A DNA stretch of 60,056 bases from an uncultured Desulfobulbia bacterium. Lineage in GTDB: Bacteria > Desulfobacterota > Desulfobulbia > Desulfobulbales > CG2-30-60-27. Both the position numbers and the translations under genes were made by a program. Below are positions 2,022 to 25,015 of this stretch, in pieces. The stretch covers positions 1-60,056 of the forward strand of contig CAYUCH010000003.1 in NCBI GenBank assembly GCA_964443295.1. The letters are read 5' to 3'. The notes under the pieces are model-generated. The model was not told the origin of the DNA, did not search any database, and saw only the letters and a list, made by a program, of their open reading frames with translations. How positions within the stretch are numbered: the first letter of the stretch is position 1; every line of letters begins with the position of its first letter.

Positions 2022-2184
2022 AGTAAGTGATCACAGGTGCAGTAGTGCGCCCGAAGGAAGTGCCCTTGGGGTATTCGTGTTCAGGGCAAGCAGACTATAG
2101 TTTTTTCGCTATGCTGCTTGCCCTTAACGCGGACAGGTCAGCGAGCCTGCGAGACTCCGGATGCTGTGCATGTGGTCACTTACT
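2022..2184. repeat. Dispersed hairpin/MITE-like element, copy 1 (long form)
   Basis: Terminal IR AGTAAGTGATCACA / TGTGGTCACTTACT (1 mismatch); inner stem AGGGCAAGCAG/CTGCTTGCCCT around TATAG..CTATG; related copies at 5605 and 24912. Confidence 0.8.
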
Positions 2185-2993
2185 CACTTTTTCCACCAGA
2201 TCAAAGCCCACCTAACTGGCGGCTTTCCCTCAATGGTCCACGTCCCCTGTGGGTGTTCGCACAGATGCTCATTAATAAAAATTTGGAGTTTTTCCTGTTC
2301 ATCCATAGTCGGATCATCCACCATCCAGGTGAGACTCTTTTCAGCTTCTTTACGAGTTGCAAATGGGCCATTCCGGTCGGCGGAGATAAAATTCACATTG
2401 GCCTGGATACCCATTTGATAGAGAATATTTACTGTGAAAATATAATCCGGACCCGTCTTAAACTCCCGCCCAATTGCCTCAAAAAGGGCTGGATACATGG
2501 GACCGTTTCCCACCCGATCAGTGATGAAAACCGCTTTTTCAGCATGATTATTCAGTTTTTCCAATGCAGCTCGGAGATCCTGAACGGCAAGAGATCGTGA
2601 CGCAATGGCCACATCGTGAACTCCAACTCCGGCTTGCTCCCAGTCGTCTTCCCAGGCAACCTGTATGGTGTGGACATTTTCATGTCCTGCTTCCCGAGCC
2701 TGCTCATTTAACACCCCAAGCATTTTGGCAGAAAAATCCAGGGCTGTGACCTGCCTGACCATCGATGCCATAGGTAAGCTCAATGTTCCTGGCCCAGCCC
2801 CAACATCCAAAACCGACCATTCTGGTTTTGGCTTCAAAGCTGCCAGAAATTCGTCCACATAGGTTGAACCAATATTACGTTTGGCAAAACCAGCAGCCCG
2901 CTTATCCCAATCACCTTTCTTTTTCTTCTTCCAGGACTTTTTGCGGCGACTCTCTTGCCACAATGTGTTCCAATCAATATCACGAGGGTCCAT
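2184..2993 (-). CDS. Class I SAM-dependent methyltransferase
   Basis: VLDVGAGPG motif I, TALDFS motif II. Confidence 0.9.
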   Translation of the reverse strand: MDPRDIDWNTLWQESRRKKSWKKKKKGDWDKRAAGFAKRNIGSTYVDEFLAALKPKPEWSVLDVGAGPGTLSLPMASMVRQVTALDFSAKMLGVLNEQAREAGHENVHTIQVAWEDDWEQAGVGVHDVAIASRSLAVQDLRAALEKLNNHAEKAVFITDRVGNGPMYPALFEAIGREFKTGPDYIFTVNILYQMGIQANVNFISADRNGPFATRKEAEKSLTWMVDDPTMDEQEKLQIFINEHLCEHPQGTWTIEGKPPVRWALIWWKK

Positions 2994-3033
2994 AATGAAA
3001 ATTCAAGACAAATAGGCTGGTAACTAAAGGTGG

Positions 3034-3348
3034 TTAATCTTCAATCTTTGATTTTATATCGGGCATGGTCTCGGGTTTGCTTGCATCCCATATACGGCTT
3101 TCTTTACCGGTTGCGGTAACATTTTCATAAACGCCATTATCCCGCCGAACGAGCTTGGTAAAACCCATATTTTTCAGATCACTATTGGTTTTGGGAGTAG
3201 AAACAGCAACAAGCGATATGAGCCGTTTCACTGGATTGCCGCAGTTTGGGCATTGGGTGAATTTATCACTGGACATTGGCTGGGTTACTTCAAAACAGGT
3301 TCCCAGTTCACATGCTTTTTCTGTATGTTCGTATTCGTATACCGGCAT
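3034..3348 (-). CDS. FmdB-family zinc-ribbon protein
   Basis: MPVYEY start, CPNCG knuckle; first ligand appears to be His rather than Cys. Confidence 0.85.
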   Translation of the reverse strand: MPVYEYEHTEKACELGTCFEVTQPMSSDKFTQCPNCGNPVKRLISLVAVSTPKTNSDLKNMGFTKLVRRDNGVYENVTATGKESRIWDASKPETMPDIKSKIED

Positions 3349-3367
3349 TTTTCTGTATCAAACTAAC

Positions 3368-4057
3368 TTAGCGTCTTTGGAGACGATTCAGAATAATAGT
3401 CAGTTCACCCTCATCAGATGACAATAAATTGGTCTTTGTGGCTATAGTATACTCTTTTTCCGCCAGTTCAAGAAACTTGGGCAGGCTTTTCCGTCGCGCA
3501 TCATGGGCCAGGAATATCACTCCATCGGGCTTTAATAGCGTAGAAAACAGGCTGAGAAGAGGTTCAAAAAAATCATCTCGGAAAAGAACTTCAGCGCCGA
3601 TGATTTTATCAAATGGTTCCATGGTGGGTGGTTTCATCCAATCAATATGTCGAAATTTCACCTCCGGTAAACCACTGGCAGCGGCATTAACCTTCTGAAA
3701 ATCTAAAATGACCTTTTCATAATCACTCAAGGTCACCTGATATCCTGCCGCGGCTGCGGCCAAACCAGGAGCTCCAAGACCGGCACCGATCTCCAGCAGG
3801 GATTCACCAGGAGCTGGCTTACCAGATGCCATCAATCCACCCAGCACCATGGCCGATTCCCACAGGCGTACCCAGAAAGGGAAGTCCTCGACATCTTTAA
3901 AAGGATCCTTTCCCGCCAAAAGTGGCTCAAGATCCTGGACTGTTAAAATTTCCAACTCTGTAGTGCCAAAACGCAATTTCTCAAAAGCTACTTTATACTT
4001 TTTACGTATATCCCGTAACTTTTTCGCTATTTCATCGGGTAACTCTCTGGATGACAT
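3368..4057 (-). CDS. SAM-dependent methyltransferase (protein-lysine methyltransferase-like)
   Basis: PFWVRLWESA, LLEIGAGLG, IIGAEVLF motifs. Confidence 0.85.
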   Translation of the reverse strand: MSSRELPDEIAKKLRDIRKKYKVAFEKLRFGTTELEILTVQDLEPLLAGKDPFKDVEDFPFWVRLWESAMVLGGLMASGKPAPGESLLEIGAGLGAPGLAAAAAGYQVTLSDYEKVILDFQKVNAAASGLPEVKFRHIDWMKPPTMEPFDKIIGAEVLFRDDFFEPLLSLFSTLLKPDGVIFLAHDARRKSLPKFLELAEKEYTIATKTNLLSSDEGELTIILNRLQRR

Positions 4058-4094
4058 GATCTTTTCTTCCTATCCTCAAACTACTTTTTAAAAA

Positions 4095-4904
4095 CTATAC
4101 AAACAATAAGGCTGCATACACAATCCCTGCCAAAACAAGACGATAATATGCAAAAATCTCGAATGACCTGGTACGGATATAACGCAGCAACAGGGCAATG
4201 ACCAGGTAGCCCGATAATGCGGCTGACAAAAAACCGGACAGATAAATTACGGTATTGCCACCAGCTGAGCTTTGTGCAACTATCTCCGGCAATTTATATA
4301 CTCCTGCCCCAAAAATTATGGGAGCTGAGAGCAAAAATGAAAACTTTGCAACGGCCTGCCTATTAAGTCCTCTAAACAAGCCGGCTGTCATAGTTATGCC
4401 GCTTCTCGACACACCCGGCATAATGGCCATGGCTTGGGCCAAACCGATTATCAACGCATCTTTCATGGTGATGGAGGAAAAATGTCGATCATGGCTACCT
4501 GCCTTTTCCCCCCAGAGTAAGAGAAGCCCTACGAGTCCTAACACCGTGGCTACAATAGCCGGAGCACGCATATGAGCTTCAGAAAAGTCTCCCAGAAAAA
4601 GACCTGCCAGAACACCTGGGATAGTTGCCAGACAAATGTATCCCACCATGGATCGCATCCGGCTCATATCTTCCGACTTATCATTATATGAAACCAGTGA
4701 TTTGCCCATGAGGAAAAAATCCTCTCGGAAATAAACAAGTATTGCCAATAATGTGCCGAGGTGGAGCGCTACGTCAAAGGCCAATTCCGCCTCTTCCGCC
4801 CCAAAAAAAGCATGGGCAAGGGCCAGATGACCGGAACTGGAAATGGGCAGAAATTCCGTTGCACCTTGCAAAATACCCATAAGTATTGCATAAAAAACTG
4901 TCAT
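4095..4904 (-). CDS. uppP: Undecaprenyl-diphosphate phosphatase (BacA)
   Basis: QGATEFLPISSSGH and PGVSRSG signatures. Confidence 0.97.
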   Translation of the reverse strand: MTVFYAILMGILQGATEFLPISSSGHLALAHAFFGAEEAELAFDVALHLGTLLAILVYFREDFFLMGKSLVSYNDKSEDMSRMRSMVGYICLATIPGVLAGLFLGDFSEAHMRAPAIVATVLGLVGLLLLWGEKAGSHDRHFSSITMKDALIIGLAQAMAIMPGVSRSGITMTAGLFRGLNRQAVAKFSFLLSAPIIFGAGVYKLPEIVAQSSAGGNTVIYLSGFLSAALSGYLVIALLLRYIRTRSFEIFAYYRLVLAGIVYAALLFV

Positions 4905-5055
4905 TCTTAACCTCACTCAATGACATTGCGTTATATATATGTACAAATCGCTTCAAGCGAAGGCACTATACGTGAGGGGAAGTTAAATGTAAACCCTTGC
5001 GTGCGATACGTTCCCATTACCTTTTTTAATTGTTTCTTCAATGACATAAAATTTA

Positions 5056-5553
5056 ATGGAATACCTGGAACACTGGCCGGATATTATTCTCAGCATCATT
5101 TTATTTGTCGGAATTGTAGGTTCTTTTGTTCCTGTCATACCTGGGACTGGCATTATTCTCTTGGGCGCTCTCTTTCATGGTCTCATCACAAACTTTTCAC
5201 CCATAAACTTTCAAGTACTTCTGGTGTTGGTGTTTTTCTTTTTGCTGGCCCAGGCAGGCCAGTATGTCGTCACAAGTATGGGAAGTAAAAAATTTGGATC
5301 AACGAAATACGGAATAATCGGTGCAGGGGTGGGAATGCTGGCCGGGTTTATCCTGCCCATACCAGGAGGTGGCTTTGTTGGGGCATTCCTTGGAGCCTTT
5401 TTGGCCGAGCTTCTTTTTGCCCTGCAAGACCTGAAAAACTCATTCAAGGCAGGAGCCGGTGCACTTTTAGGCGCCATTTTTTCACTGTTTTTCGAATTCG
5501 GCCTTGCCTGCACCATGGCAGGGCTTATTTTCTATAGCCTCTTTGCTGTTTAG
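5056..5553 (+). CDS. DUF456-type membrane protein
   Basis: Gly-rich hydrophobic helices, PVIPG and KKFGSTKYG pattern. Confidence 0.8.
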   Translation: MEYLEHWPDIILSIILFVGIVGSFVPVIPGTGIILLGALFHGLITNFSPINFQVLLVLVFFFLLAQAGQYVVTSMGSKKFGSTKYGIIGAGVGMLAGFILPIPGGGFVGAFLGAFLAELLFALQDLKNSFKAGAGALLGAIFSLFFEFGLACTMAGLIFYSLFAV

Positions 5554-5604
5554 GCACCTCATCGGGATAAACTCCCTACCAAATCCATCACTTCCCATAA
5601 ACTG

Positions 5605-5707
5605 AAATGATCACAGGTGCCGCAAATTCACGTTAACACGGGTGATCGCCATAGACTGCTATGCGGAGAGTCATGATGGAGTGACTATGTGATGGTTGTG
5701 ATCATTT
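5605..5707. repeat. Dispersed hairpin/MITE-like element, copy 2
   Basis: Perfect 11-bp terminal IR AAATGATCACA/TGTGATCATTT, central CATAG-actg-CTATG. Confidence 0.8.
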
Positions 5708-5709
5708 AC

Positions 5710-5750
5710 AAAAAAAAAGAGCTGTTTGATCATCAATGATCAAACAGCTC
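5710..5750 (-). terminator. Intrinsic terminator of the ExtJ-like gene
   Basis: Long perfect IR GAGCTGTTTGATCAT/ATGATCAAACAGCTC followed on the minus strand by a T9 tract. Confidence 0.9.
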
Positions 5751-5780
5751 AAATTCAGACAAAGACGTGCAAATAAGTAA

Positions 5781-5996
5781 TTAGCAGCCTTCGATGGCTT
5801 TGCTTCCACCACTTTTTTTGCTTTTTACGCTTACTTTATCACCAGCTTTCAGTTTGCTGGCTTTTTTGCAGGTCATGGTAACTTTGTCGCCGTCAACAGA
5901 GTCAACGGTGCATTTTACTTTAGCAGCGAAACCAACTGCTACAGTGCTCATAAGGAAGGCGGCTGCCAAAACGGAAACAAGTACTTTTTTGCTCAT
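5781..5996 (-). CDS. Small exported ExtJ-like protein with C-terminal ...EGC
   Basis: Signal peptide, small beta domain (VDSVDGDKVT), Lys-rich flexible tail ending Gly-Cys, strong AAGGAG RBS; resembles Geobacter ExtJ family as recalled. Confidence 0.7.
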   Translation of the reverse strand: MSKKVLVSVLAAAFLMSTVAVGFAAKVKCTVDSVDGDKVTMTCKKASKLKAGDKVSVKSKKSGGSKAIEGC

Positions 5997-6070
5997 CTCT
6001 CTACTCCTTTAAAAAAATTATGATACCCAGTCCCTCACGGACGTTTAAGCCTCTACTAAAACGAGAATAT

Positions 6071-6100
6071 CTTATAAAAGATTGCCTTAATGTCTGTCAA
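6071..6100 (-). promoter_or_regulatory. Candidate sigma70 promoter for the ExtJ-like gene
   Basis: TTGACA-N18-TATAAG on the minus strand. Confidence 0.5.
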
Positions 6101-6150
6101 GATGAAATTTTAATTTGCACCTTTGGGCTCAAAAGGGAGTTCCTGCACAT

Positions 6151-6678
6151 TTAATTTAATAACTTTTCAACATCCCTTCTTAAAATTTTATACGACGTAT
6201 AACCGGTGTACGTCCTTTGTTTTCTTCCGGTTCTATCTAAAAGAAAAGTGGTTGGCACACCGCGCACTCCTCCAAACTGAACCAAAACATTTTGGTCGGC
6301 AATCACTACCGGATAGTCGATCTTGCTCCGCTTAATAAATTTCTTCACAACCCGGCTCCCACCTTGATCAATGGAAATACCAAGAACAACCAACCCTTTC
6401 TCACCGAATTCTTCCTGCAACTTTTTGAGATAAGGAATTTCTTTGCGACAAGGAGGACACCAGGTGGCCCAAAAATTCACTAAAACCACCTTGCCTCTTA
6501 ATTGTCTCGAATCAATAATATTTCCATCTGGTACTGTTGCGAGAGAAAATTGAGGGATATCCGGTGCTGCTTGCGCAATATCGCTCGATAGTGCAAAAAA
6601 CAACATCCAAACAAAGACTCCGAAAACGATCTTAAAAGCAAAACAATTCCGGCACAAAAGCTTCATGAACATAGACAT
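6151..6678 (-). CDS. TlpA/ResA-family periplasmic disulfide reductase
   Basis: NFWATWCPPC, GVPTT cis-Pro loop, N-terminal hydrophobic segment. Confidence 0.92.
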   Translation of the reverse strand: MSMFMKLLCRNCFAFKIVFGVFVWMLFFALSSDIAQAAPDIPQFSLATVPDGNIIDSRQLRGKVVLVNFWATWCPPCRKEIPYLKKLQEEFGEKGLVVLGISIDQGGSRVVKKFIKRSKIDYPVVIADQNVLVQFGGVRGVPTTFLLDRTGRKQRTYTGYTSYKILRRDVEKLLN

Positions 6679-6787
6679 ACTCTTCTATCTGTAGAAAAAA
6701 TTCATACTCTATACTTTCTTTATTATGGGCCATATCCTTACCAGTCTTTCGCCACGATGACAAAGAAAAACAACTCTACGGGCCAAT

Positions 6788-6831
6788 AAAATGACCGGCA
6801 ACCATTATTATACTCATGGCGCCGGTCATTT
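6788..6831 (-). terminator. Probable terminator of the hcp operon
   Basis: IR AAATGACCGGC/GCCGGTCATTT downstream of the ferredoxin gene. Confidence 0.55.
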
Positions 6832-6863
6832 CATGCATATTGGACAAATCAACAGACAGTTCT

Positions 6864-7619
6864 TTAGTTGTTCAGTATTTCTCCCCGGGTGCTGATCACT
6901 ACTTCTTTTACAGGAATATCTGCACCAGCCCGTTTCAATGCCTCCTGAATAATACTCCGCATCCCCGAGCAGCAGGGGACTTCCATGATGGCAATGGTGA
7001 CGCTGGCAAGTTCAGCTGTGGCAAAAATATCACGGAATTTCTGCACATACATGTCCACTTCATCAAATTTTGGACAACCGACCAGTACAACTTTCCCCTT
7101 TAGAAGTTCACCATGAAAGTGTGGATATGCAAATGCTGTACAATCAGCAGCCACTAATAAATCTGCGCCTTTAAGAAAAGGTGCTGTGGGTGGCACCAAA
7201 CGAATCTGAAGAGGCCAGTGGGTCAAGGCTGATCCACCTGCCATCGGTGTAAGTCCACTCACCGGTTTATTGGCCTGCTGGCATGGTGTAAGAGTTGGAG
7301 CAGGAGCAGCGACTAAAGAAGGACCAGAGCACGCACAGGATGGAGCACTTACCTCTTTTTTTCTGGCAGCCTTTTGCTTTGCCAAGAGTTCCTCGACTGC
7401 CTGATGATCGTAATCTTCAACTTCTCTCTCAACTATGGTAAGCGCGCCTTCAGGGCATTCCCCCAAGCAGGCGCCTAGTCCATCACAATATTTTTCCCCT
7501 ATGATCCTGGCCTTGCCGTCAATAATTTCCAGAGCCCCCTCGGCACAAGACGGTACACAAACACCACAGCCGTTGCATAATTCTTCATCTATTTCAATAA
7601 TATTGCGCATTACTTTCAT
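6864..7619 (-). CDS. Hcp-associated 4Fe-4S dicluster protein (FrdX-like)
   Basis: CNGCGVCVPSC and CDGLGACLGECP, plus C-terminal AADC/GCPK/MEVPCC domain. Confidence 0.88.
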   Translation of the reverse strand: MKVMRNIIEIDEELCNGCGVCVPSCAEGALEIIDGKARIIGEKYCDGLGACLGECPEGALTIVEREVEDYDHQAVEELLAKQKAARKKEVSAPSCACSGPSLVAAPAPTLTPCQQANKPVSGLTPMAGGSALTHWPLQIRLVPPTAPFLKGADLLVAADCTAFAYPHFHGELLKGKVVLVGCPKFDEVDMYVQKFRDIFATAELASVTIAIMEVPCCSGMRSIIQEALKRAGADIPVKEVVISTRGEILNN

Positions 7620-7680
7620 ACTCTTTCTCCTTGCATCCTTCCTTCAGCAACGGTTGGTTATATTTCCTCACATCCGTGTT

Positions 7681-8370
7681 TCAGCTTATATTCAATACTT
7701 CCCTTGCCAAACCTGCGCCCCTTTCAGTGTAAAAATTCTGCTCAATGAACTCCGTTAATTCATCATCTGTTCTAGGAGTTTCTTTTTGCGCTTCGTCCAA
7801 AGTCACGACCATGAGAGCATCGTGCAGTACTTTAGATTCAATACTACTTGCTTGATTCATGTTTGCGGTTTGACGTAAAAGATCTATTACTTCTAAGATA
7901 AAATTCGCCTCTGCATCAATGGCCTTTAAAATCTCTTTAGGAAAATCTTTATCAAAATTTTCTTCACTCTCAAAATCATAGAGTAGAGCCGAGACCATGA
8001 CCACGGCAAGTTTACAGGCTTCTTCTCTACCAATTTCTTCGGCATATTGCACTGCTTTGGATGCCCGGCCGAAACGTTGAAAATCTCCTTCACACTGCCG
8101 TTTCAGTTCTATGGCCACCTTATCTTTAATGAGCTCCTGTTTCTTGGCAGCTAGTTCCGGCGGCAGAGAGCCTAAACACTGTTCAGCATAGGGACAATAA
8201 GAAGCACAGCCAAAATCAATCCGGGGATTCAACATCCGGTGACCGCAATTTCGGCACGTCCTGGTGGAGTCATCTTTAAAGAACTCTACCACGTGCGAGC
8301 ATTCCGGACACTTTGCTTCAAAAATTGCCGCGTCATCCCAGTAGCGACTATCTTGACCAGGGCATTGCAT
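7681..8370 (-). CDS. Cys-rich N-terminal domain fused to a degenerate HD-like domain
   Basis: MQCPGQD, CPEC, CRNC, CASYCPYAEQC; LLYD where HD would be expected. Confidence 0.65.
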   Translation of the reverse strand: MQCPGQDSRYWDDAAIFEAKCPECSHVVEFFKDDSTRTCRNCGHRMLNPRIDFGCASYCPYAEQCLGSLPPELAAKKQELIKDKVAIELKRQCEGDFQRFGRASKAVQYAEEIGREEACKLAVVMVSALLYDFESEENFDKDFPKEILKAIDAEANFILEVIDLLRQTANMNQASSIESKVLHDALMVVTLDEAQKETPRTDDELTEFIEQNFYTERGAGLAREVLNIS

Positions 8371-8449
8371 GGTGTCCTCTCCCTAAAAATTATTCAAAAA
8401 GGTTTAATTGTGGGGAAGCAGTGGTAGATACTCCTTCCCCACTTTACTA

Positions 8450-10075
8450 TTAACCTAATATGGCCTGCAGGTCTTCATCCGCTGTGGAGATGGGCTTGAT
8501 CTCAAAATTCTGAACCAGCACATCAAGAACACCTGGGGTAATGAAAGCAGGAAGGCTTGGGCCAAGACGGATATTCTTGACACCCAAGGAGAAGAGTGAC
8601 AGAAGAATAACCACGGCCTTCTGCTCATACCAGGACAGAACTAATGAAAGCGGCAGATCATTTACACCGCATTCAAATGCATCGGCCAAGGCCAGGGCAA
8701 TTTTCACCGCAGAGTAAGCATCATTACATTGCCCGATATCCAGAAGTCGAGGAATGCCACCGATATCACCAAGCTGTTTGTCAAAGAAACGAAATTTGCC
8801 GCATGCCAGAGTCATTACCATGCAATCCTCTGGAATTTTCTCAACCAGCTCAGTGTAGTAATTACGTCCAGGCTTGGCTCCATCACAGCCACCAACCAGG
8901 AAGAAATGACGGATAGCCTTACTTTTTACCGCATCAATTACCTTGTCAGCCACTGACATCACTGTATTCCGACCAAAACCAACCAAAACCGTGCCTTTAT
9001 CCGTATCCGCAGGGAAACCATCCATGGCCAGCGCTTTTTCGATCACTGGACCAAAATCGCCATTCTGTACATGGGTAACTCCAGGCCAACCAACCAGGCC
9101 AGTGGTAAAGATATCATTGAAATATGAATCTTTGGGCTTCTGAATACAATTTGTGGTCATAAGAATAGCACCGGGGAATTCGGCAAATTCCTTGGCCTGA
9201 TTCTGCCATGCTGTTCCATAATGGCCATAAAAATGATCGTATTTCTTTAATTCAGGGTAACCGTGGCAAGGAAGCATCTCACCATGGGTATAGATATTGA
9301 TTCCCTTGTCTTTTGTTTGTTCCAGCAAGTCAGCCAGGTCTTTCAAGTCATGGCCGGAAACCAGGATTGCTTTGCCTGCTTTGGCACCAAGAGGAACCTC
9401 GGTTGGCACAGGATGGCCATACGTTCCGGTATTTCCTGCATCCAGCAATTCCATGGCCCGAATATTCACTTCACCGCATTTCAAGGCCAAGGCAACACAG
9501 TCATCAGCTGTAAGGTCAGTGCGCAACAAGCCGGCTAAAGCCTCATGGATAAATGTGTAGACTGCATCATCTTCCTGGCCGAGAATTTTTGCATGGTCTG
9601 CATATGCAGCCAAGCCCTTCAATCCAAAAAGCAGTGTATGCTTCAGGCTGGTAATATCCGCATTCTCGCCACCAGGCTGTAATTCGACCGCCTCACCCTG
9701 CTTAACTATTCCATCCATAAACCCTTCTGGGGTGAAATTGGCAGCTGCCTCGTCAAAATTAACATTGCCACCGGCTGCCTGGACTTTCTCTTTTAATTGT
9801 TCACGCAAGGCGACTGTACGGTTAATCAGAGAAACAAAACGCTCTTCATCAAAATTCACATTGGTCAAGGTTGAAAACACACCTTCACAAGTAAAAAGGT
9901 CTACTTCATTATCCGTAACGCCAACCTTCCGACCTTCAACAGCATAGAGGGCAAGACCCTGTAAAGCATGGATAAGCAGGTCCTGTAGAGCAGACACATT
10001 GGGTTGTTTTCCACAAACACCAATTGTTGTGCATCCAGTCCCTTTGGCAGCTTGTTCACATTGGTAACAAAACAT
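8450..10075 (-). CDS. hcp: Hybrid cluster protein (hydroxylamine/NO reductase)
   Basis: MFCYQCEQ..GC..GVCGK, SGHDL, THGEM, GQCNDAY, LSWYEQKA. Confidence 0.98.
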   Translation of the reverse strand: MFCYQCEQAAKGTGCTTIGVCGKQPNVSALQDLLIHALQGLALYAVEGRKVGVTDNEVDLFTCEGVFSTLTNVNFDEERFVSLINRTVALREQLKEKVQAAGGNVNFDEAAANFTPEGFMDGIVKQGEAVELQPGGENADITSLKHTLLFGLKGLAAYADHAKILGQEDDAVYTFIHEALAGLLRTDLTADDCVALALKCGEVNIRAMELLDAGNTGTYGHPVPTEVPLGAKAGKAILVSGHDLKDLADLLEQTKDKGINIYTHGEMLPCHGYPELKKYDHFYGHYGTAWQNQAKEFAEFPGAILMTTNCIQKPKDSYFNDIFTTGLVGWPGVTHVQNGDFGPVIEKALAMDGFPADTDKGTVLVGFGRNTVMSVADKVIDAVKSKAIRHFFLVGGCDGAKPGRNYYTELVEKIPEDCMVMTLACGKFRFFDKQLGDIGGIPRLLDIGQCNDAYSAVKIALALADAFECGVNDLPLSLVLSWYEQKAVVILLSLFSLGVKNIRLGPSLPAFITPGVLDVLVQNFEIKPISTADEDLQAILG

Positions 10076-10162
10076 AACATCCTCCTTTTCTTTTGATAAC
10101 TAATCGAGACCGATGGTTAAATCCATTCGGTTGTGTTTAAGTGGATACGCACTGTTGACTAA

Positions 10163-10205
10163 ATGATAGCAGACCCTGGAAACACTTTTCTTTGACTTAG
10201 ATCAA
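10163..10205 (-). promoter_or_regulatory. HcpR/FNR-type box plus extended -10 (class II promoter) of hcp
   Basis: TTGAT-CTAA-GTCAA at 10192-10205 (minus strand); TGC-TATCAT extended -10 at 10163-10171; box centre about 42 nt from the predicted start. Confidence 0.8.
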
Positions 10206-10288
10206 GTGCGGTATTTTTTTTCAAAAAATGCTATGTATTATTGCACTGGATTCTTCAGGATTAATTCACTCAACTTTTTCACCATCTT

Positions 10289-16642: not shown

Positions 16643-16666
16643 TACAAACTACATCCATAAACAAAT

Positions 16667-16711: not shown

Positions 16712-16746
16712 CTACTCGTTAAGTGATCAAAAGTGCCGTAGATTAC

Positions 16747-17561: not shown

Positions 17562-17627
17562 AACCTCAGCCCTCCCTGGGGTTTGTGGATTCGTTAATAA
17601 ACTCCCTGTTTACAACAGGATACCCTG

Positions 17628-19661
17628 TTAAATAAAATCCACAAGACTTAAGTTCATTGCCCTTGCCGAGGCCTGAAGGGCGGCCTCATAAGCAACTTCC
17701 CTGGTTTTCAGATCAACAAGTGATTTCACCATATCGGCATCCTGCCGATCGGAGAGATTCTCAGTGGCAATCAAATCCAAATCAACATAAATGGTCTTCT
17801 GAGACATAATCCGATTGGCCCGGGAACCAAAGTCAACCATCTTGGTGGTCAAATCTTCAAATACCACATCCAAGTCGGCAAAGGCCTGCTCAATGGCCCC
17901 AACCTGGACATCTTCATACCTGAGGCCCACAGCTCTCAAAAAATTACTTCCCCCTGAATCCTCATGGGAAAGTTCAAAATTATACCGTTCAGGATCAGCG
18001 GAATCGATTTCCAGATACCCATTAGGATTCCATGCCGCATCAAGCCCTGGAACATCATTGAGTCGACTGACTACGGTGTCAAGACTGTCATTTGCCACAT
18101 CTACGCCAATTTCATAGGTAGTCCGTGTTGGCGGATAATAAGCCTGGTCAATCATGGTGACTGAGAAAAAGCCATCCGCCAATGCCTGTTCTGCCGGAAG
18201 TTCGGGAAGACCTGTATCCCCAGAGTCAAGAGTGACGGTTGTATCTGCTGCTGCTGCTACTCCGACGGCCCGGGTATATTCCTGGTTCTGCAGAGCATCA
18301 TAAAAAGCCTCTAGAGTTTCAAAAACTCCGGAGTCCATCAGCACATCTTCTCCGTTACGGCCCACAGTGAGGGTACTGCTGCGGCCCACACGAATATCCA
18401 AGTCATGATCTCTATCGCCGGTATATCGCACACTCTCATCCTGAAACTGGACATGGTCTACCAGAATACGGCCATCAGCGGCCGTGTCATCAGGCTCACC
18501 AGTGACGGCTGTACCGCCGGCCACGCCGATTATGTCAAGGCCAGCATCACCAGGCAAAGTAGACTCCAGGATAAAACGGTCCTCGGAATGAAGTTGCAAC
18601 GATCCGTAGTATACTCTGTCTCCAGGAATAGCAGGGAAGGTCAGTAGGGGATCTGTCAAGTGAGTGATTTGCTCGGCATTAATTGTAGTGGTTTCTATAT
18701 GCAAATTCCTTCCATCCACTGCAGTAAGTATGAGTTGCCCACTATTATTTCGGGTGGCAACAATACCTGTGTTTACTTGCTCAGCATTGATGGCGTCGAT
18801 CAGCACATTATCCACATCATCAGCCACAATGGCGGTGGAACCACCAGCAAATATATCAACACCGTTGATGAGTAAATCACCGGGATCAAGAGTACCTGCC
18901 TCAACACTACCCAGCACCCTATGAGAAACAGGCACAACTTCAGCTGTCACGCCGGTCAGGCTGGCCTCGGCATTGATAGCGTTGGCTTTGGCTTGGGCAG
19001 AGGCCTCATCATAAGTACCTGGACCTGGAACAAAAGGTAAAGCTTCAGACAAACCATCTGAAACCGATGCCCCAATAGGTTGACCATCTATGACCAGATC
19101 CCCGGCCGCCAGGGGTACAGGTTGTGGAGCAGGCGGCGGCCCGGCCAACTGATCCGTTGACGGAGGTTGCGTGCCATTAATCCGGTAGCCATTAATCCGA
19201 TCAATCATAAATGGAGCCGGCTCATCAGCGGTATAGCCATCGATACGGTGCCCGCCAAATATATATCGGCCACCCACCTGGGTATTACCGAGAATAACAA
19301 TCTGCTCCATGAAACTTCGTACTTCAATTGCCACACTGGCATACTGATCTGGATGGATAGCGCCATCGATCATGCTGGCGGCCTTAGTCCTGGCATCCAC
19401 AACCAGGTCTTTAATCTGGGTCAAAATATTGCCGGATGACTCGGCAATATCTGCGCCATAACTCAAGTTCTCTTGGTATTGTTTTATTTCTTCTAAGTTG
19501 CTGCGCAAATTCAGTACAGCCACCATACCTACCGGGTCATCGGACGGGGCGGATATCTCTTTACCAGAGGATATTTTCTTGGTGATACTCTGCAGGTCCG
19601 CCGTATGCAGATTCAAATCTGTGATGATATTTCGATTAATGGACTGAAGAGTTGCTCTCAT
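17628..19661 (-). CDS. flgL: Hook-associated protein 3 FlgL (long form)
   Basis: Flagellin-like N-terminus (PSDDP, GRYIFGG) and C-terminus (AYEAALQ..LSLVDFI); follows flgK. Confidence 0.93.
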   Translation of the reverse strand: MRATLQSINRNIITDLNLHTADLQSITKKISSGKEISAPSDDPVGMVAVLNLRSNLEEIKQYQENLSYGADIAESSGNILTQIKDLVVDARTKAASMIDGAIHPDQYASVAIEVRSFMEQIVILGNTQVGGRYIFGGHRIDGYTADEPAPFMIDRINGYRINGTQPPSTDQLAGPPPAPQPVPLAAGDLVIDGQPIGASVSDGLSEALPFVPGPGTYDEASAQAKANAINAEASLTGVTAEVVPVSHRVLGSVEAGTLDPGDLLINGVDIFAGGSTAIVADDVDNVLIDAINAEQVNTGIVATRNNSGQLILTAVDGRNLHIETTTINAEQITHLTDPLLTFPAIPGDRVYYGSLQLHSEDRFILESTLPGDAGLDIIGVAGGTAVTGEPDDTAADGRILVDHVQFQDESVRYTGDRDHDLDIRVGRSSTLTVGRNGEDVLMDSGVFETLEAFYDALQNQEYTRAVGVAAAADTTVTLDSGDTGLPELPAEQALADGFFSVTMIDQAYYPPTRTTYEIGVDVANDSLDTVVSRLNDVPGLDAAWNPNGYLEIDSADPERYNFELSHEDSGGSNFLRAVGLRYEDVQVGAIEQAFADLDVVFEDLTTKMVDFGSRANRIMSQKTIYVDLDLIATENLSDRQDADMVKSLVDLKTREVAYEAALQASARAMNLSLVDFI

Positions 19662-19670
19662 GACATACTC

Positions 19671-22166
19671 CTATCGTCGCAGACTATTCACCAGGGTTTC
19701 CAACATCTCATCGGATGTGGAAACCAATTTGGCAGCCGCCGTATAGGCCTGTTGAAATTTAATAATGTTGGCCAATTCCTCATCAAGAGAAACGCCGGAA
19801 AAAGAATCTCGCATGTCATTCAACTGATTGGAAATCATGGTATGTAATTCAGCATTGCGTTCAAGCATCCGCACCCGCGAACCAAGATCACCAACCAATG
19901 AATTATAAAAACCATCCAAAGTGGTTATATCACCATTTGAGAACTCAACTGTTTCATCAAATTGCACCAAATTCAAAGCGAGGGCGTTTTCGTTGTCACC
20001 CCGAAAAATTGATCCATCATCATCTATATTTCCAGCAGCAACAAACGAAACGTTCGCCTCGAGCACACTGTTCACCCTGATGGTGGATGCATCATAACCG
20101 GAGAAGAAGGTGTTAACCCCTGCTACTTGGAGGATGTTGGAAGTATCATTGGCAAAGGCATACTGCACATCAACTGCTCCCAGAAATTCCAACTTATTCT
20201 CTCTTACCGAAGCGGTAAGATATGCGGGGCCACCGGAAGCGTTTGTAACGGATGTATTGATTGCACTGGCAACATCGTGCAGCGTATAAGCGCGATCCAA
20301 ATCCACGGTCACTGGAATGGGAAGGAGAGGCATATCATCGGCATCATAGAGCCAGATATCAAAGCTCCCACCATCGGTGACAACTTCATCACCATATTCA
20401 AAACCCAGAAGAGAGGCAGCCACACCGCCGGGATGCTCGTAGCCATAGGTAACTTCTCCATCGTTGGCCACATCATCAACATGCAGGCCTCCGGCCATAC
20501 CCAGATGCACCAGATTTATATCATCAGGTCCAGCAGTTATCTCAATATCTTCATTTGAAAACAGAGTGATCTCGCCGGTATTCTGGGTAGCAGTCGCTTC
20601 ATATGTGCCATCGACAAACGAAAGGTTTGCGTCAGCTGGTGTCGTAAGTGGATCAACACCACCAATGACAATGCTTGAACTCTCGCCTGGCAATGTATTT
20701 CGAAAAATGATGGAATCAATTGGGCCGCCATTTGTTCCATCACCCACTATTGCCTCAATGGTCATGGTGTCGGGAACTGTGGTCGGGTCTGCATTATATA
20801 CGGTAATTGCAGCATTAGTCGCTGCAGCCACTGCCGTTGCCGTAGCATTGGCAGTCTCTGCTCCCACTGCCGTGTACGTGACAGCAATACCATTTATTGT
20901 GAAATCCACCACATCAGCAGCTGCCAGGCCAACAACCGTTCCACCAGCTACCTGCGTGGTAAGCCGAGCAACGACACCTTCCTGAGCAACATTAATGGCA
21001 TTGACTGCATTATAGGCCTTTTCCATAGCCAGGCCATTAGCAGGCGGTCCACCATTTATTGTTCCTACCTCGCGACCGTTTATCTCAAAAATGCCTGCTG
21101 TAATATCAACGTTGGCTAATGCTGCATCAACGGTTGTAGTGAGTACAGCAGTATTCTCCGCCCGCTCCGTACCCATGAGATCATCTGAAAACCTGAGCAT
21201 CCCCACACCCTGAGAATGCACTTGATTGACTTCCCGAATAAATGACCTGGTAAAGGATTCAAGACGACCAAAAACATTACTGGGATCTCCGGGAATAAGC
21301 TCATTATGGACTTCCAACCACCCGCCCATTTCACCGCCCATTTCCTCACCTTCTCCCAATTCCGCCCTCAATTCTCGACCATCATTGAGCTCCGAAATCC
21401 AGACTAATTGATTGTTGTTGAAATCAATTCTATTGGATTCCGTACCATCAACCAAAGTGTGCCCATCTGCCAACAATACCGAAACAGCGCCGTTTCTGAC
21501 ATTTTCGTAGGTTGTGATATCAAGGAAAGTAGACAATTCGCCCACGAGATTATCGCGCGTATCGCGTAAATCATTCATCTGCTGTCCCGGTTTTTCCAGG
21601 GTAGCGATTTCCCTGTTAATATCCGCAACCTGTTCTGTCAGCCTGTTAACCTCGGAAATCGCAACATTGAGCTCGTTGCCGATATCAGTTCTTGCCTTAA
21701 TTAATTCACTATAGGCATTGCCAAGATAATCTTGAACCAATGTGCCGCTTTGCAACAACGCCTGACGAGTTGCAAGATTTTCAGGCAGGTTGGCGACATC
21801 CTGCCAGCTCTGCCAATATTGGCCCATCAAATCATTGAGACCAAGTCCGGTTGATTCATTAAAGATGGCCTCTACAATGGTCAAGGTCTTTTCCTGAGCT
21901 TCAAAATTCGCCAGGGTGGTATTCTCCTCTATTATCCTGCTGGTAAGGATTTGATCATACTGCCGCATTATGGATTCTGCTTCTACACCTGTACCGATAG
22001 ATCCGACAGAGGTAGGTGTGGCCAACCTGTTGGCCAGATTCAAGACCTGCCGGGAATAACCAGGAGTATCAACATTTGCGACATTATTGGAAGCAACCTG
22101 TACCGATAGTTGATGGGTCAGGAGGGCTCCCTTGGCGATATCGAGGACTGAACTGATTCCTGCCAC
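19671..22166 (-). CDS. flgK: Hook-associated protein 1 FlgK (long form)
   Basis: NNVANVDTPGYSRQ and SGVSLDEE..FQQAY termini. Confidence 0.95.
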   Translation of the reverse strand: MAGISSVLDIAKGALLTHQLSVQVASNNVANVDTPGYSRQVLNLANRLATPTSVGSIGTGVEAESIMRQYDQILTSRIIEENTTLANFEAQEKTLTIVEAIFNESTGLGLNDLMGQYWQSWQDVANLPENLATRQALLQSGTLVQDYLGNAYSELIKARTDIGNELNVAISEVNRLTEQVADINREIATLEKPGQQMNDLRDTRDNLVGELSTFLDITTYENVRNGAVSVLLADGHTLVDGTESNRIDFNNNQLVWISELNDGRELRAELGEGEEMGGEMGGWLEVHNELIPGDPSNVFGRLESFTRSFIREVNQVHSQGVGMLRFSDDLMGTERAENTAVLTTTVDAALANVDITAGIFEINGREVGTINGGPPANGLAMEKAYNAVNAINVAQEGVVARLTTQVAGGTVVGLAAADVVDFTINGIAVTYTAVGAETANATATAVAAATNAAITVYNADPTTVPDTMTIEAIVGDGTNGGPIDSIIFRNTLPGESSSIVIGGVDPLTTPADANLSFVDGTYEATATQNTGEITLFSNEDIEITAGPDDINLVHLGMAGGLHVDDVANDGEVTYGYEHPGGVAASLLGFEYGDEVVTDGGSFDIWLYDADDMPLLPIPVTVDLDRAYTLHDVASAINTSVTNASGGPAYLTASVRENKLEFLGAVDVQYAFANDTSNILQVAGVNTFFSGYDASTIRVNSVLEANVSFVAAGNIDDDGSIFRGDNENALALNLVQFDETVEFSNGDITTLDGFYNSLVGDLGSRVRMLERNAELHTMISNQLNDMRDSFSGVSLDEELANIIKFQQAYTAAAKLVSTSDEMLETLVNSLRR

Positions 22167-22167
22167 G

Positions 22168-22686
22168 TCACACCTCCCGGCTTACAACGCGAGGAACATT
22201 GCTCACGGTTTTTGATTGTCCAACCGCGCCATAACCACCCTGTTTCTGTTCCGCACCGGTAAAAAGAGCTATGGAGTCTCCTAAAAATGAAAGAGTCTCT
22301 TGGATAAACTGGTGATTTACCAAATTCCTGGTGACAATTTTTTCCCGCAGCTCTCGCCACTCATGCTGCATGGCTTTAAAATGCTCCTCCGACTCTCCTT
22401 CAAACAAGGCATCAAGAGTAGCCAAAGCAGCTGATTTGTCTGGACCATTTGGGCATAAATTTTCCAGTACATAGCGGAGTTTGTCGTCCTGTTCCTGTAA
22501 GGCACCGAAAAGATCGTCCTTGATCTGCGAAAAACCGATGAGGGCAGAAACATCCATTTTTACAATAGCTTCCCGCTCTTGCTCGAGAAGATCTATTATT
22601 TCCTGACCAAGGACAAGTTCTCTTTCTAAAACTGTAATGATTGTCTCATGGGCTGAAATGTCGGATATTTGGTCTTGTGTATTCAT
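22168..22686 (-). CDS. flgN: Flagellar export chaperone FlgN
   Basis: Helical protein (LLEQEREAI, RNLVN, GY tail) directly before flgK; ATG at 22686. Confidence 0.85.
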   Translation of the reverse strand: MNTQDQISDISAHETIITVLERELVLGQEIIDLLEQEREAIVKMDVSALIGFSQIKDDLFGALQEQDDKLRYVLENLCPNGPDKSAALATLDALFEGESEEHFKAMQHEWRELREKIVTRNLVNHQFIQETLSFLGDSIALFTGAEQKQGGYGAVGQSKTVSNVPRVVSREV

Positions 22687-22690
22687 GACT

Positions 22691-23008
22691 CTACTCACTT
22701 GTGTTATTAGAGGTAAGCTGCTTATAGAGAATTTCGCCAAGGCCCATACCTTTTTCGCTGGCAAGCTGATCGGCTAAGGCATTATCGTGCATACTCTGGA
22801 ACATATCCTTGGAGTAGGAATCTCCAAAAAGGCCATCTTTTGGAACTGTCTCCCGCATAAGTTTCAAAAGCTGGCGAAGCATAATTGCCTCGAAATTCTT
22901 ACATGCCTGGTGCAACCTTTCCTCATTTGCATTATCGGTCAAAACACCCTTTTCCTTTAATGCAATTTCCGGGTTTATCGGCATATTAAGAGGAATTTTC
23001 GGAATCAC
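22691..23008 (-). CDS. flgJ: Rod-binding-only FlgJ
   Basis: ACKNFEAIML..MR, GMGLGEILYKQL; no muramidase domain. Confidence 0.9.
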   Translation of the reverse strand: MIPKIPLNMPINPEIALKEKGVLTDNANEERLHQACKNFEAIMLRQLLKLMRETVPKDGLFGDSYSKDMFQSMHDNALADQLASEKGMGLGEILYKQLTSNNTSE

Positions 23009-23021
23009 GGCAACACTCCTT

Positions 23022-24113
23022 TTAAATAATGACCAACTCAGCCATTAAACCACCCGAGGCCTTAATGGCCTGAAAGATGGCGATCATATCCCGGGGAGTT
23101 ACTCCCACGGAATTTAAAGTTCGTACCAGCTCACCTAAAGTGGCCTTTTCTTCCAATGTTATCAACTGGTTGGACCGACCAGTGGCAGGATTGCCACCAA
23201 TACGGAGACTTAATTTACCGTGCGAAAGGGCAAGCTGTCGAAGCCGTACATGTTCTCCCATGACGACGGTTCCAGTGCGCTCATCCAAAACGACCCGGGC
23301 CATGGCATCCGGCGTTACCTCAAGGTTTTCCACATCGGCCAGAAATAAAATTTGTTTGTCCTGGTATGATTCCGGCACATTAATAGTCACTGTAGATCCG
23401 TCCAAAGCCTTGGCATAGGGACCTTCCAGAAATCCATCAATCACTGAAACCATACGGGAAACCGTGGTAAAATCGGGATGCTTCAAGCTCAACGTAATGG
23501 TATTACGGTCTGCATATGAGAGTGTTACCTCTCGTTCAACGGTTGCGCCTCCGGGGATTCTTCCCACAGTAAGATGATTTTTCTGTACACCACCAGTCTC
23601 ACCTTCTACCTCAATTCCACCTACGGAAACTGCTCCTTGGGCCATTGCATATACCTTGCCATCCAATCCTTTAATGGGGGTGGCAACAAGGGTCCCACCC
23701 TGGAGGGATGCGGCATCACCCAGTGATGAAAGTGTTACATCAATGGTCTGGCCCGCTTTTACAAAGGGTGGCAAATGGGCTGTTAGCATTACTCCAGCCA
23801 CATTTTTTACTTTGACATTGGCTGGATCGACATGAACACCCATCTTTTCCAGCATATTGATAAGTCCTTGGGTAGTGAAAGCAGAATTGCTCCCATCACC
23901 TGTGCCGTTCAAGCCAACAACCAGACCAAAGCCGACCAGCTGATTACCCCGAACACCATGTACTGTTGCCAAGTCTTTCAGGCGGGCAGCATTGCTCAAG
24001 GTCGGCCAAATCAATATCAAAGCCAATATCGCGCACGCCAGGCCCATTCTACCTTTTACCCAATCTGCTTTGTCCTGCGTTTTGACTGCCATCATCGTCA
24101 TTCCTTCGCTCAT
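23022..24113 (-). CDS. flgI: Flagellar P-ring protein FlgI
   Basis: GVRGNQLVGFGLVVGLNGTGD, VLDERTGTVV. Confidence 0.97.
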   Translation of the reverse strand: MSEGMTMMAVKTQDKADWVKGRMGLACAILALILIWPTLSNAARLKDLATVHGVRGNQLVGFGLVVGLNGTGDGSNSAFTTQGLINMLEKMGVHVDPANVKVKNVAGVMLTAHLPPFVKAGQTIDVTLSSLGDAASLQGGTLVATPIKGLDGKVYAMAQGAVSVGGIEVEGETGGVQKNHLTVGRIPGGATVEREVTLSYADRNTITLSLKHPDFTTVSRMVSVIDGFLEGPYAKALDGSTVTINVPESYQDKQILFLADVENLEVTPDAMARVVLDERTGTVVMGEHVRLRQLALSHGKLSLRIGGNPATGRSNQLITLEEKATLGELVRTLNSVGVTPRDMIAIFQAIKASGGLMAELVII

Positions 24114-24135
24114 TGAATGCGGAAATTATTTCCCA

Positions 24136-24870
24136 CTAAAATGGCCAGATAAAATCCATACCCCTTGCCAACCAACCCGGTTGTTGCTTTTCACTGATAA
24201 TACCGGTGCCGCTGTATTCGATACGGGCATCTGCAATGCGAGTGGAGAGGATCGTATTATCAAAAGAAATATCCTCAGGCCGCACCAAACCGGTGATGAT
24301 CATATGCTGAGTCTCATCATTCACCCGCACTTCTTTATAACCACGGACCATGAGATTTCCCTGAAGTGTTACCTCGATAATCCGGGCGGCCATACTGGCG
24401 GTCACTGTACTGTCTCGCTTGGTCTCTCCGGATCCGTCAAAATCGTTTTTCAAGGTCACGTTAATATTGCTGGTGGAAGGGGTAAAATTGGCATTTCGGC
24501 CGCTCAACCATTGCTCAACTCCGAAAAAAGCCCCCAAACCACCGGTAAGTGTTGAATTCCGTGCTGTTTTTGTAGATGCCTTTTTGGTAGCGCTAGACGT
24601 CTCAACAATCTTCACCATGATGATATCTCCCACCCGTGAAGCACGATGGTCGCTATATAAATCAAGGGAATTCTCAGCTTGGTAGATGGCACCTTCTTTT
24701 GGTGTAAAAGCCTGGGTTTCCACACTTGGTAATGTATAGCGCTGGGGCATATGGCCGTCATCGTCAGACTTTACAGCACTGCTTCCCGTGGTAACGCAAC
24801 CACTTAGCAGCCATACAAACACAGGAAGGATAAAAGCCTTGGCTATCCGCATGTTTTTTACCTTTTTCAA
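24136..24870 (-). CDS. flgH: Flagellar L-ring lipoprotein FlgH
   Basis: Lipobox LSGC, GLVRPEDI, IADARIEYSG, QQPGWL. Confidence 0.96.
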   Translation of the reverse strand: MKKVKNMRIAKAFILPVFVWLLSGCVTTGSSAVKSDDDGHMPQRYTLPSVETQAFTPKEGAIYQAENSLDLYSDHRASRVGDIIMVKIVETSSATKKASTKTARNSTLTGGLGAFFGVEQWLSGRNANFTPSTSNINVTLKNDFDGSGETKRDSTVTASMAARIIEVTLQGNLMVRGYKEVRVNDETQHMIITGLVRPEDISFDNTILSTRIADARIEYSGTGIISEKQQPGWLARGMDFIWPF

Positions 24871-24911
24871 AATGTCACCTTTCGTAATGCGCTATCTACC
24901 TTATGGTCCTG

Positions 24912-25015
24912 AAATGATCACAGGTACCGTAGATGTTCGTAAGCAGGATAATCAGTCTATAGTTACCTATGCTGGTTAGCCTGATCACGAGCAGATGCGG
25001 TGTATGTGATCATTT
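24912..25015. repeat. Dispersed hairpin/MITE-like element, copy 3, between flgA and flgH
   Basis: Perfect terminal IR AAATGATCACA/TGTGATCATTT; arms pair nearly end to end with G.T pairs; centre CAGTCTATAG-ttac-CTATGCTG. Confidence 0.85.

Follow-up and report, generated by a model that had tools for sequence, protein, structure and literature searches.

A gene-less repeat with IS66-type ends and a folded core at gene ends in the Desulfobulbales

Hairpin copies in the window and the plan of the element

The window, a stretch of 60,056 nucleotides of contig CAYUCH010000003.1 from an uncultured bacterium of the Desulfobulbales, contains four copies of a hairpin repeat and, possibly, one internally deleted relic (Table 1). 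The three copies that a sequence-only reading had recognised by their common ends and apex were all recovered with those ends and that apex; the element itself, however, reaches 37–57 nt further left. Its left third and its target duplication had also been overlooked in that reading. Copies 1 and 3 abut a stop codon as described, at a distance of 0 and 1 nt, respectively. Copy 2, which had been placed directly 3′ of a minus-strand gene, contacts no gene; it comes after a terminator-like stem (5719–5750, minus strand), which in turn stands behind a 71-codon ORF.

Table 1. Positions of repeat copies, their parts and their inserts in the window
Feature	Position	Strand	Remarks
Copy 1, possible decayed left duplication (5/8 match), left end and spacer	1968..2022	+	Uncertain; by eye; not significant in the duplication test
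Copy 1, hairpin part	2023..2183	+	With two inserts; right end adjoins 2184-2186, the stop codon of a methyltransferase gene on the minus strand
Four further extra bases	2043-2046	+	Beside insert A
Insert A, 26 nt	2047..2072	+	GCGCCC-n-GTGCCCTTGGGGT type; in left-arm AG/AT loop of copy 1
Insert B, 24 nt	2136..2159	+	GGTAAGCG-n-AGACTCCG type, one change; after A of right-arm AG/AT loop
Copy 2, decayed hairpin part	5604..5709	+	Left end and duplication not recognisable
Possible internally deleted relic	16720..16746	+	Left arm start joined to TTAC; touches fliW stop codon; weak (E 0.12)
Copy 3, left 8-bp target duplication	24866..24873	+	Repeat continues to 14 bp
Copy 3, decayed left end and spacer	24874..24910	+	
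Copy 3, hairpin part	24911..25016	+	Between flgA and flgH
Copy 3, right target duplication	25017..25024	+	Contains flgA stop codon
Copy 4, hairpin part	42984..43091	-	Other subtype; reversed orientation; absent from the sequence-only reading
Copy 4, spacer and left-end position	43092..43135	-	
Copy 4, left 8-bp duplication	43136..43143	-	Partner 42976-42983; repeat continues for ~21 bp

The plan of the element consists of an 8-bp target duplication, an outer left end (GTAAC..TCA), a spacer of 30–45 nt and a hairpin of ~108 nt. The 3′ arm of the hairpin terminates in the right end of the element, the hairpin being the right two-thirds of a gene-less miniature element (MITE) of ~155 bp. Element length ranges from 127 to 165 bp, and one copy of 181 bp carries an insert. 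At a threshold of E ≤ 0.01, 58 copies were counted in the genome, including the four in the window, and 0 in a reversed decoy; of the Desulfobulbales genomes compared, 150 in all, 124 contain matches. Most copies are solitary between core genes, and tandem arrays are found occasionally.

The 8-mer that follows the right end recurs 30–65 nt left of the hairpin, with at most one mismatch allowed, in 16 of the relatives' 46 copies and 10 of the 49 in the present genome, the mirror control giving 0/46 and 1/49, respectively. Among 105 distinct copies in relatives, 37 have an exact 8-mer with a GTAA-like start (at 43–57 nt in 34 of the 37), and the exact duplication is absent in 68. A 161-bp element of one genome (G010) is missing from two others (G047 and G025), both of which contain the 8-mer once, which constitutes an exact empty site; a second orthologous site is also elementless and too diverged for an exact junction. 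The terminal inverted repeats, formed by the outer left end and the right end, match at a mean of 9.4 of 12 nt (n = 36) and are decayed in the window copies, while the inner arm agrees with the right end in 11.1 of 12 nt.

The target duplication is kept in only one of the three copies first recognised, and the flanking repeats of copies 3 and 4, with 14 and ~21 bp, exceed 8 bp. For the site between flgA and flgH, three metagenome loci (54–61% protein identity) were obtained, of which the two with the junction visible are elementless, at a distance too great to define the exact site. No exact empty site was obtained for the window's own copies, and no strain variation was seen in two DNA runs, which may be the source of the present DNA. 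The one RNA run from the same study gave no reads on two stretches, a result that points in neither direction. The copies of the present genome are old and have probably lost their mobility.

IS66-type ends and the predicted transposase

Ten IS66 elements without tnpA/tnpB, with PF03050 present in the four that were scanned, end in GTAAC...TCA(G/C), and exact 8-bp duplications flank seven of the ten. The outer left ends of the MITE match the ends of such single-transposase IS66 elements of relatives in 10.5 of 12 nt and those of three-gene IS66 elements in 8.1, the corresponding values for its right ends being 10.4 and 9.6. Since the right ends drift away from the IS66 consensus along with the inner arm and fit three-gene IS66 elements nearly as well, the donor subgroup is less sure for the right end. 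In one genome (G079), the left end of the MITE is identical to the end of that genome's own IS66 element (12/12). Judged by ends and duplication, an IS66 transposase likely mobilises the MITE. None was found in the present assembly (293 contigs, from which repeats may be missing as unassembled); a cognate-type IS66 transposase occurs in four genomes (G079, G047, G127 and G002), all of which also contain the MITE. The earlier suggestion of a non-autonomous element is thus supported by the 8-bp duplications, the empty site and the IS66-type ends.

A close parallel is provided by ISDge4 of the ISBst12 group within the IS66 family, a single-ORF element with imperfect ends GT(A/G)ACT..TCAG of about 12–14 bp and an 8-bp direct repeat, according to what PMC12898284 reports of it. 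Unlike ISDge4, the present MITE has no transposase, is only about 155 bp long and contains a third, internal end-like sequence, and its hairpin core was absent from 40 IS66 loci. As far as PMC3184786 and PMC11578231 describe them, bcr1, ERIC, Nezha and Chunjie (the former source) and MITEPye1 of the IS1182 type (the latter) are likewise short and gene-less, with terminal repeats of IS families, target duplication, empty sites, proximity to gene ends and, in bcr1, compensatory changes. The present MITE differs from these descriptions in its IS66-type ends, in its asymmetric plan, with a right end that pairs with the inner arm rather than with the left end, and in core motifs that recur in a family with different ends. 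Neither an IS66-type MITE nor a description of the present family or its inserts was found in the literature searched (ISfinder was outside its scope), and the MITE catalogue of PMC11602168 may contain copies.

We consider it probable that the repeat is a gene-less IS66-type element, likely moved in trans as double-stranded DNA by an ISBst12-type enzyme, with a core predicted to form a hairpin on one strand and likely to serve as a landing site for smaller inserts. The transposase would act on the right end and the outer left end as a pair, mostly passing over the end-like start of the hairpin; the core may be cargo rather than a remnant of IS66. Ordinary as a MITE, the element offers natural substrates for a transposase group with a little-studied mechanism.

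Folding, strand asymmetry and position at gene ends

Relative to shuffled sequences, copy 3 folds with a z of −6.9 as DNA and −7.7 as RNA, and copy 1 with −5.0 as DNA; copy 2 reaches only −1.6 (DNA) and −2.1 (RNA) and is therefore weak taken alone. The plus strand folds better than the minus strand in all three copies. Over 30 copies of the present genome, 84.0% of the cells are paired (65.3% when shuffled, 33–42% when slid), and 38 of 46 pairs show change on both sides, in a structure derived from the same 30 rows on which it was scored. The sequence-only reading was thus right that the arms differ and nevertheless pair, and the one-strand excess of G.T pairs that it described is also confirmed, with 154 G.T against 48 A.C after exclusion of two fixed wobble columns.

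Copies sit at gene 3′ ends, on stop codons. The claim that all share one orientation does not extend to copy 4, which lies on the minus strand with its G.T strand being the transcribed one, so orientation is a bias and not a rule: between co-directional genes, 27 copies are antisense and 9 sense, and a count of 44 against 21 likewise places the better-folding strand mostly opposite the mRNA strand. Copies may persist where genes end since each end of the element brings a stop codon or leaves the existing one intact, and the better-folding strand would be mildly avoided in mRNA. Across the order, the repeats provide genes with stop codons and new C-termini.

What maintains the pairing can be read in two ways. 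We propose that the arms may be corrected against each other while the strand is transiently folded, in combination with selection on fixed odd pairs. A rather unlikely alternative is that the same IS66-type MITE has a fold without any role, its arms being complementary only through template switching or repair and its shared cores reflecting recombination between neighbouring repeats. The inner arm does follow the right end in each subfamily, single copies in the complete genome G022 have matched changes in both arms, and neither the loops nor the spacer are constrained in sequence, all of which suits a roleless fold. However, pure correction should remove mismatches equally on both strands, in conflict with the excess of G.T over A.C, and three further features speak for more than correction: a tandem T.G/G.T pair retained in 27–28 of the 30 copies, nearly invariant G.A/A.G loop bases and a hairpin length near 108 nt across families.

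It is improbable, in our estimate, that the core acts as RNA, as an antisense or co-transcribed stem that alters how neighbouring transcripts are terminated or how stable they are. The core folds at least equally well as RNA, its tandem G.T and G.A pairs are compatible with both DNA and RNA folding, and it is located at gene 3′ ends. In the account given by PMC3184786, compensatory changes preserve the RNA structure of bcr1, and ERIC influences mRNA decay. Nevertheless, the mRNA strand is in most cases the one that folds less well, and the spacer, beyond the end motif, has no conserved sequence for a promoter. Nor is there an Rfam family for it: the comparison proposed earlier, made with Rfam 15 at gathering score, gave 0 matches in the window, and nine loci gave four sub-threshold matches to miRNA-type hairpins.

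The sequence-only reading had also considered a REP/HUH-like element. HUH insertion makes no target duplication, so the 8-bp duplications, together with the exact empty site, argue against a REPIN-like or IS200/IS605-like unit moved single-stranded by an HUH (Y1) enzyme, and we hold this to be very improbable for the whole element despite its strand-specific fold, the resemblance of GTAA to a GTAG foot and the presence of Y1 genes in 175 of the 201 Desulfobulbales genomes examined. Replication-strand bias is lacking (24 against 22 in G022, counted by hand), the flanks inspected for the two 311-aa Y1 genes contain no copy, and the ends have no short internal palindrome; two partial Y1 matches exist besides. 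Recognition as a folded single strand is nonetheless a plausible reading of the inner core, and the case for it is strongest with the small inserts. That the hairpins are attC-like sites for a tyrosine recombinase is hardly credible, since for all their conservation of structure rather than sequence, G.T bias on one strand, occasional tandem arrays and 33 tyrosine-recombinase (PF00589) matches in the genome, the base beside TAA/TTA varies freely (G-C 9, A-T 8, C-G 8, T-A 5; column 8/114), so the fixed AAC/GTT of attC sites is absent, most copies are solitary, and the duplications flank a longer unit. A tyrosine recombinase 2 kb from tandem copies on C62 has a phage-like appearance.

Small inserts and a core shared between families

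The extra inserts noted earlier in copy 1 are present, but the separate repeat families behind them had been overlooked. Inserts A and B are members of independent families of 17–28-nt units with over 4,000 matches, which occur in many folded repeats without duplication, at most 1 nt being repeated at 207 of 210 insertion sites. The lack of target duplication typical of HUH insertion is thus seen for the inserts and not for the whole element. Insert B sits after an adenine at about 91% of sites, not exclusively, and 0 occurrences were found in viral contigs. The two inserts do not stand out by folding energy (z +0.7 and −1.1), and their structure, which covaries and has DNA-type GNA triloops, therefore rests on covariation. 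Both insert-filled and insert-empty paralogues exist, as do tandem insert copies. In G079, a seeming preference of insert B for one strand was rejected as a listing artefact.

The inserts likely move on their own, and a putative single-strand cut-and-join enzyme would paste them into folded DNA. The search for an enzyme found none; the Y1 profile, given its presence in 175 of 201 genomes, is too common to implicate one, and a Y1 match is lacking in several genomes rich in insert B (G097, G105).

The plan and core motifs of the IS66-type MITE recur in a second family, whose ends differ and whose duplication is 6 bp long. The partner IS of the GATGG family was not among 30 PF13751 loci, and a candidate was obtained by end search. 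The ends are what defines a MITE; here, plan and core motifs are common to families whose ends differ, which goes beyond the usual picture and suggests some function of the folded core. We tentatively raise the possibility, to which we give somewhat less than an even chance, of a three-layer parasite system on folded DNA in the Desulfobulbales, in which an independent core is fitted with IS66-type (8-bp) or DUF772-type (6-bp) ends in one fixed plan and GNA-triloop mini-hairpins of 17–28 nt are pasted into the folded strands by a novel enzyme activity. If so, few known mobile elements would be as small as these mini-hairpins.

Small dispersed repeats (SDR) of Nostoc were reportedly described by Elhai et al. 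in 2008. Inserts A and B resemble SDR, as portrayed in PMC4390886, PMC2884548 and PMC3116915, in a size of about 20–27 nt, precise insertion, tandem copies and the lack of a known enzyme. They differ from that portrayal in sequence and phylum, in targeting folded repeats, mostly after an adenine, rather than HIP1, and in a covarying GNA-triloop structure. REP sequences and REPINs, to the extent covered by PMC3733652 and PMC6006769, are also small hairpins, some REP families lying inside larger palindromes; in contrast to them, the inserts have no GTAG or CGTC tag, no linked Y1 gene was found, and the host element duplicates its target. The number of B inserts per genome ranges from 0 to about 300, in a data set that is aligned and covarying, includes a near-complete genome, and bears on the question of how repeats of ~20 nt move.

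Hairpin copies and their structure

The sequence-only reading had described three long hairpins in the window, and all three are present. Folded as DNA and compared with shuffled sequences, copies 1 and 3 reach z values of -5.0 and -6.9, and copy 2 is weak at -1.6. The plus strand folds better than the minus strand in each of the three, in agreement with the strand-specific folding that had been claimed. The surrounding genes are ordinary (mnmG and a methyltransferase, a thioredoxin-like gene, flgA and flgH), and Rfam gives no match anywhere in the window. At E<=3, a profile built on 26 copies hits 67 places in the genome assembly (G000), and the reversed genome gives no hit. After excision of the inserts, 58 copies score E<=0.01, including four in the window, against zero in the decoy; the earlier observation of a family is confirmed and extended.

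Location of the hairpin copies in the window and of a third, small insert type in the G000 assembly
Feature	Position	Strand	First noted in
Copy 1	2023-2183		sequence-only reading
Copy 2	5604-5709		sequence-only reading
Copy 3	24911-25016		sequence-only reading
Copy 4	42984-43091	-	present analysis
Third insert type	C2:52575
Third insert type	C23:28626
Third insert type	C35:25116
Third insert type	C71:7999
Third insert type	C133:5804
Third insert type	C209:65

Covariation support for the hairpin is strong. Arms that differ in sequence still pair, as had been noticed: among 30 copies, both partners vary in 38 of the 46 pairs. Paired cells amount to 84.0%, against 65.3% after shuffling and 33-42% when slid, statistics for which the structure was derived from the same 30 rows with kinship uncorrected, and which are not an R-scape test. 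Three features are fixed: a bulged apex stem, a symmetric loop of GTGC facing GTGC with tandem T.G/G.T, retained in 27 and 28 of the 30 copies, and a second symmetric loop of AGAT facing AGAT with tandem G.A. With the fixed wobble columns (two) excluded, G.T pairs outnumber A.C mismatches by 154 to 48 in the G000 copies; in relatives the ratio is 194 to 26 over 49 distinct top-scoring copies, a model-selected set. Among 150 genomes of the order (Desulfobulbales), 124 match a covariance model from the 30 copies, no more than 25 candidates being scored in each; in a phylum sample the model matches 7 of 150, five of the seven lying outside the order. In one genus of the order (g17), the model matches 0 of 12 genomes, insert B (described below) occurs in only 2 of 17 and IS66 in 5 of 17.

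At G000 C62:3200-3631 and in two further loci (L117, L165), three or four hairpin copies follow one another head to tail, separated by variable spacers. Upstream of copy 2 lies a lysine-rich 71-codon ORF (5781-5996) that begins like a signal peptide and has a terminator of its own. At 28685-30460 (+), a 591-aa gene whose C-terminal half is DnaB-like helicase stands among minus-strand chemotaxis and flagellar-region genes.

The complete element and IS66-type ends

In young copies of relatives, the eight bases 3′ of the right end are repeated 43-57 nt to the left of the hairpin and are followed there by GTAAC..TCA. With at most one mismatch, this 8-mer duplication is found in 16 of 46 copies in relatives and in 10 of 49 in G000 (55 minus six with poorly defined ends or short flanks), against 0 of 46 and 1 of 49 in a mirror control. 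Among 105 distinct copies in a larger set from relatives, 37 show the duplication exactly and together with a GTAA-like start; the distance is 43-57 nt for 34 of them, 18 and 24 nt for two and 0 for one. These positions define the unit as duplication, outer left end, variable spacer, hairpin and duplication, and mean that the end-like start of the hairpin is seldom used. A 161-bp copy in one relative (G010) is missing at the orthologous locus of G047 and G025, where the flanks overlap by exactly the 8-mer, and G036 likewise lacks it; a second orthologous site is empty and too diverged for an exact junction.

In the window, copies 3 and 4 retain a flanking repeat of 8 bp, extending to 14 and about 21 bp, and copies 1 and 2 keep no flanking duplication. 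The G000 copies are decayed and probably inactive. At the longer repeats (24866-24879/25017-25030 and 42963-42983/43123-43143), the left end of the element is replaced by sequence matching the right flank.

The gene-less repeat of about 155 bp has the properties of a MITE, with ends of IS66 type. For comparison, the ends of 17 IS66 elements were read from 50 loci and two fragments. Ten elements without a tnpA/tnpB pair (1.6-1.7 kb when they hold one gene, 2.3-2.4 kb when a DruA-like gene is present) end in GTAAC...TCA(G/C), with exact 8-bp duplications in 7 of the 10; seven three-gene elements have GTAAGCG/GTAACCG ends and an inner CATCT-like box. The outer left ends of 36 MITE copies agree at 10.5 of 12 nt with the single-transposase group and at 8.1 with the three-gene group, the right ends at 10.4 and 9.6, respectively, and in G079 the MITE left end is identical to the end of the genome's own IS66 at 12 of 12 nt. 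ISDge4 (ISBst12 group) is described with ends of the same form and an 8-bp repeat (PMC12898284). Since the hairpin is absent from all of 40 IS66 loci, MITE and IS66 have only the ends in common. PF03050 occurs in 67 of 201 genomes of the order, with no match in the G000 assembly. We propose that the MITE is very probably moved in trans by the DDE transposase of IS66, which would act on double-stranded ends. The right end is closer to the inner arm (11.1 of 12) than to the outer left end (9.4 of 12), which points to arm-to-arm correction.

The MITE did not qualify as a REP/HUH element, nor the hairpin as an attC site. Two 311-aa Y1 (RAYT-like) genes in G000 (C23:36422-37357 and C154:2692-3627) have flanking short GGGGTCAGGCTTG repeats unrelated to the MITE. 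IS66 elements in which a DruA-family (PF14236) gene precedes the transposase, with 8-bp duplications, lie at L106:1134-3469 and L101:1240-3653; G079 has four matches at the same score.

A shared core and the placement of copies

A second family has GATGG...CCATC ends and, in seven listed cases, a 6-bp duplication that is exact; it follows the same plan as the MITE (outer end, spacer, inner end, then a hairpin that terminates in the right end) at 155-166 bp without inserts. It has ATACAAGGCG, GGCGTAC-loop-GTACGTCGA and ACAACGCAGTAGAT in common with an IS66-ended subtype; it resembles the window's own subtype less closely, by way of intermediate copies. Its candidate partner is a 1297-bp element that has GATGG...CCATC ends and a DUF772 transposase domain and lacks a duplication. 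A third, 141-bp family has loops similar by eye. The balance tips slightly towards a core that rides as cargo and folds for short times, rather as DNA than as RNA.

Of the full-length G000 copies, 22 of 43 have the stop codon of a long ORF between -4 and +5 nt of their right end, as do 41 of 105 copies in relatives; in 5 and 22 of these, respectively, the stop is the TAA of the MITE's own end. At the G010 site, insertion nine codons ahead of the original stop created a new gene end. Between co-directional genes, by crude ORF calls, the better-folding strand is antisense rather than sense in 27 versus 9 cases in G000 and 44 versus 21 in relatives; leading and lagging strands are balanced (24 and 22 of 46 copies, hand-counted in the complete genome G022). 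Placement would thus reflect survival where insertion is harmless, with the stronger fold mildly avoided in mRNA.

Literature searches returned no description of this family. Passages of the respective papers already report a folded MITE with compensatory changes (bcr1, PMC3184786), REPs within larger palindromes (PMC3733652), an IS1182-type MITE (PMC11578231) and a very small repeat with precise insertion (SDR5, PMC4390886). Extracts of PMC9208149 and PMC6006769 contain nothing on this family, and the main text of PMC11602168 lacks the term IS66.

Small inserts within the hairpin

Copy 1 carries two extra small hairpins, inserts A (26 nt) and B (24 nt), and one genus has near-identical MITE copies with A, B, both or none. 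Insert B has the form GGTAAGCG-n-AGACTCCG (17-28 nt). Preceded by an A base, it gives 3,882 matches spread over 126 of the order's 201 genomes analysed, the reversed pattern none; after another base, 381 matches, many tandem, in 61 of 201, the reversed pattern two. Of 201 genomes sampled from the phylum, only two have it, both members of the order. Once the insert is removed, 63 of 80 and 45 of 74 sites fall outside the MITE by its profile, which misses some decayed copies; hosts include GTAG-type and GTCATTCC-type palindromes, core-sharing families and insert A. Within the MITE it occupies many positions on both strands. At most 1 nt is repeated in the flanks of 207 of 210 sites, folding reaches z<-3 at 36 of 54 sites against 5 of 54 controls 240 nt off, and 13 of 54 lie within a long open frame. 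Insert A, with 398 matches in 47 of 201 genomes, likewise occurs in tandem arrays; of 29 sites sampled, 22 are outside the MITE.

Among 24 distinct 9-nt middles of insert B, both inner pairs are present in 22 and a GNA loop, with all four N represented, in 15; the 17-nt form is C-GNA-G itself, and a 2-nt loop takes the place of GNA in the commonest 24-nt form, the one found in copy 1. C-G-closed GNA triloops are described as unusually stable in DNA and their RNA counterparts as far less so (PMC13037366). Both inserts are probably independently mobile units acting on folded DNA. The analysis found no candidate enzyme for them; our best guess, because duplications are absent and copies occur in tandem, is a putative HUH-type cut-and-join activity.

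At three homologous G000 loci (C161:3608, C162:5620, C184:475), insert B is in frame near a gene 3′ end, and two of these adjoin tyrosine recombinase gene pairs. An insert-B-like array interrupts a sequence in L330 (G120:C1, near 2160500), which we take to resemble a 5S rRNA gene. The third insert type, about 18 nt and GACACCGCTTCGCTGTTA-like, occupies several hairpin positions in both orientations, with 6 of 8 matches near a copy.
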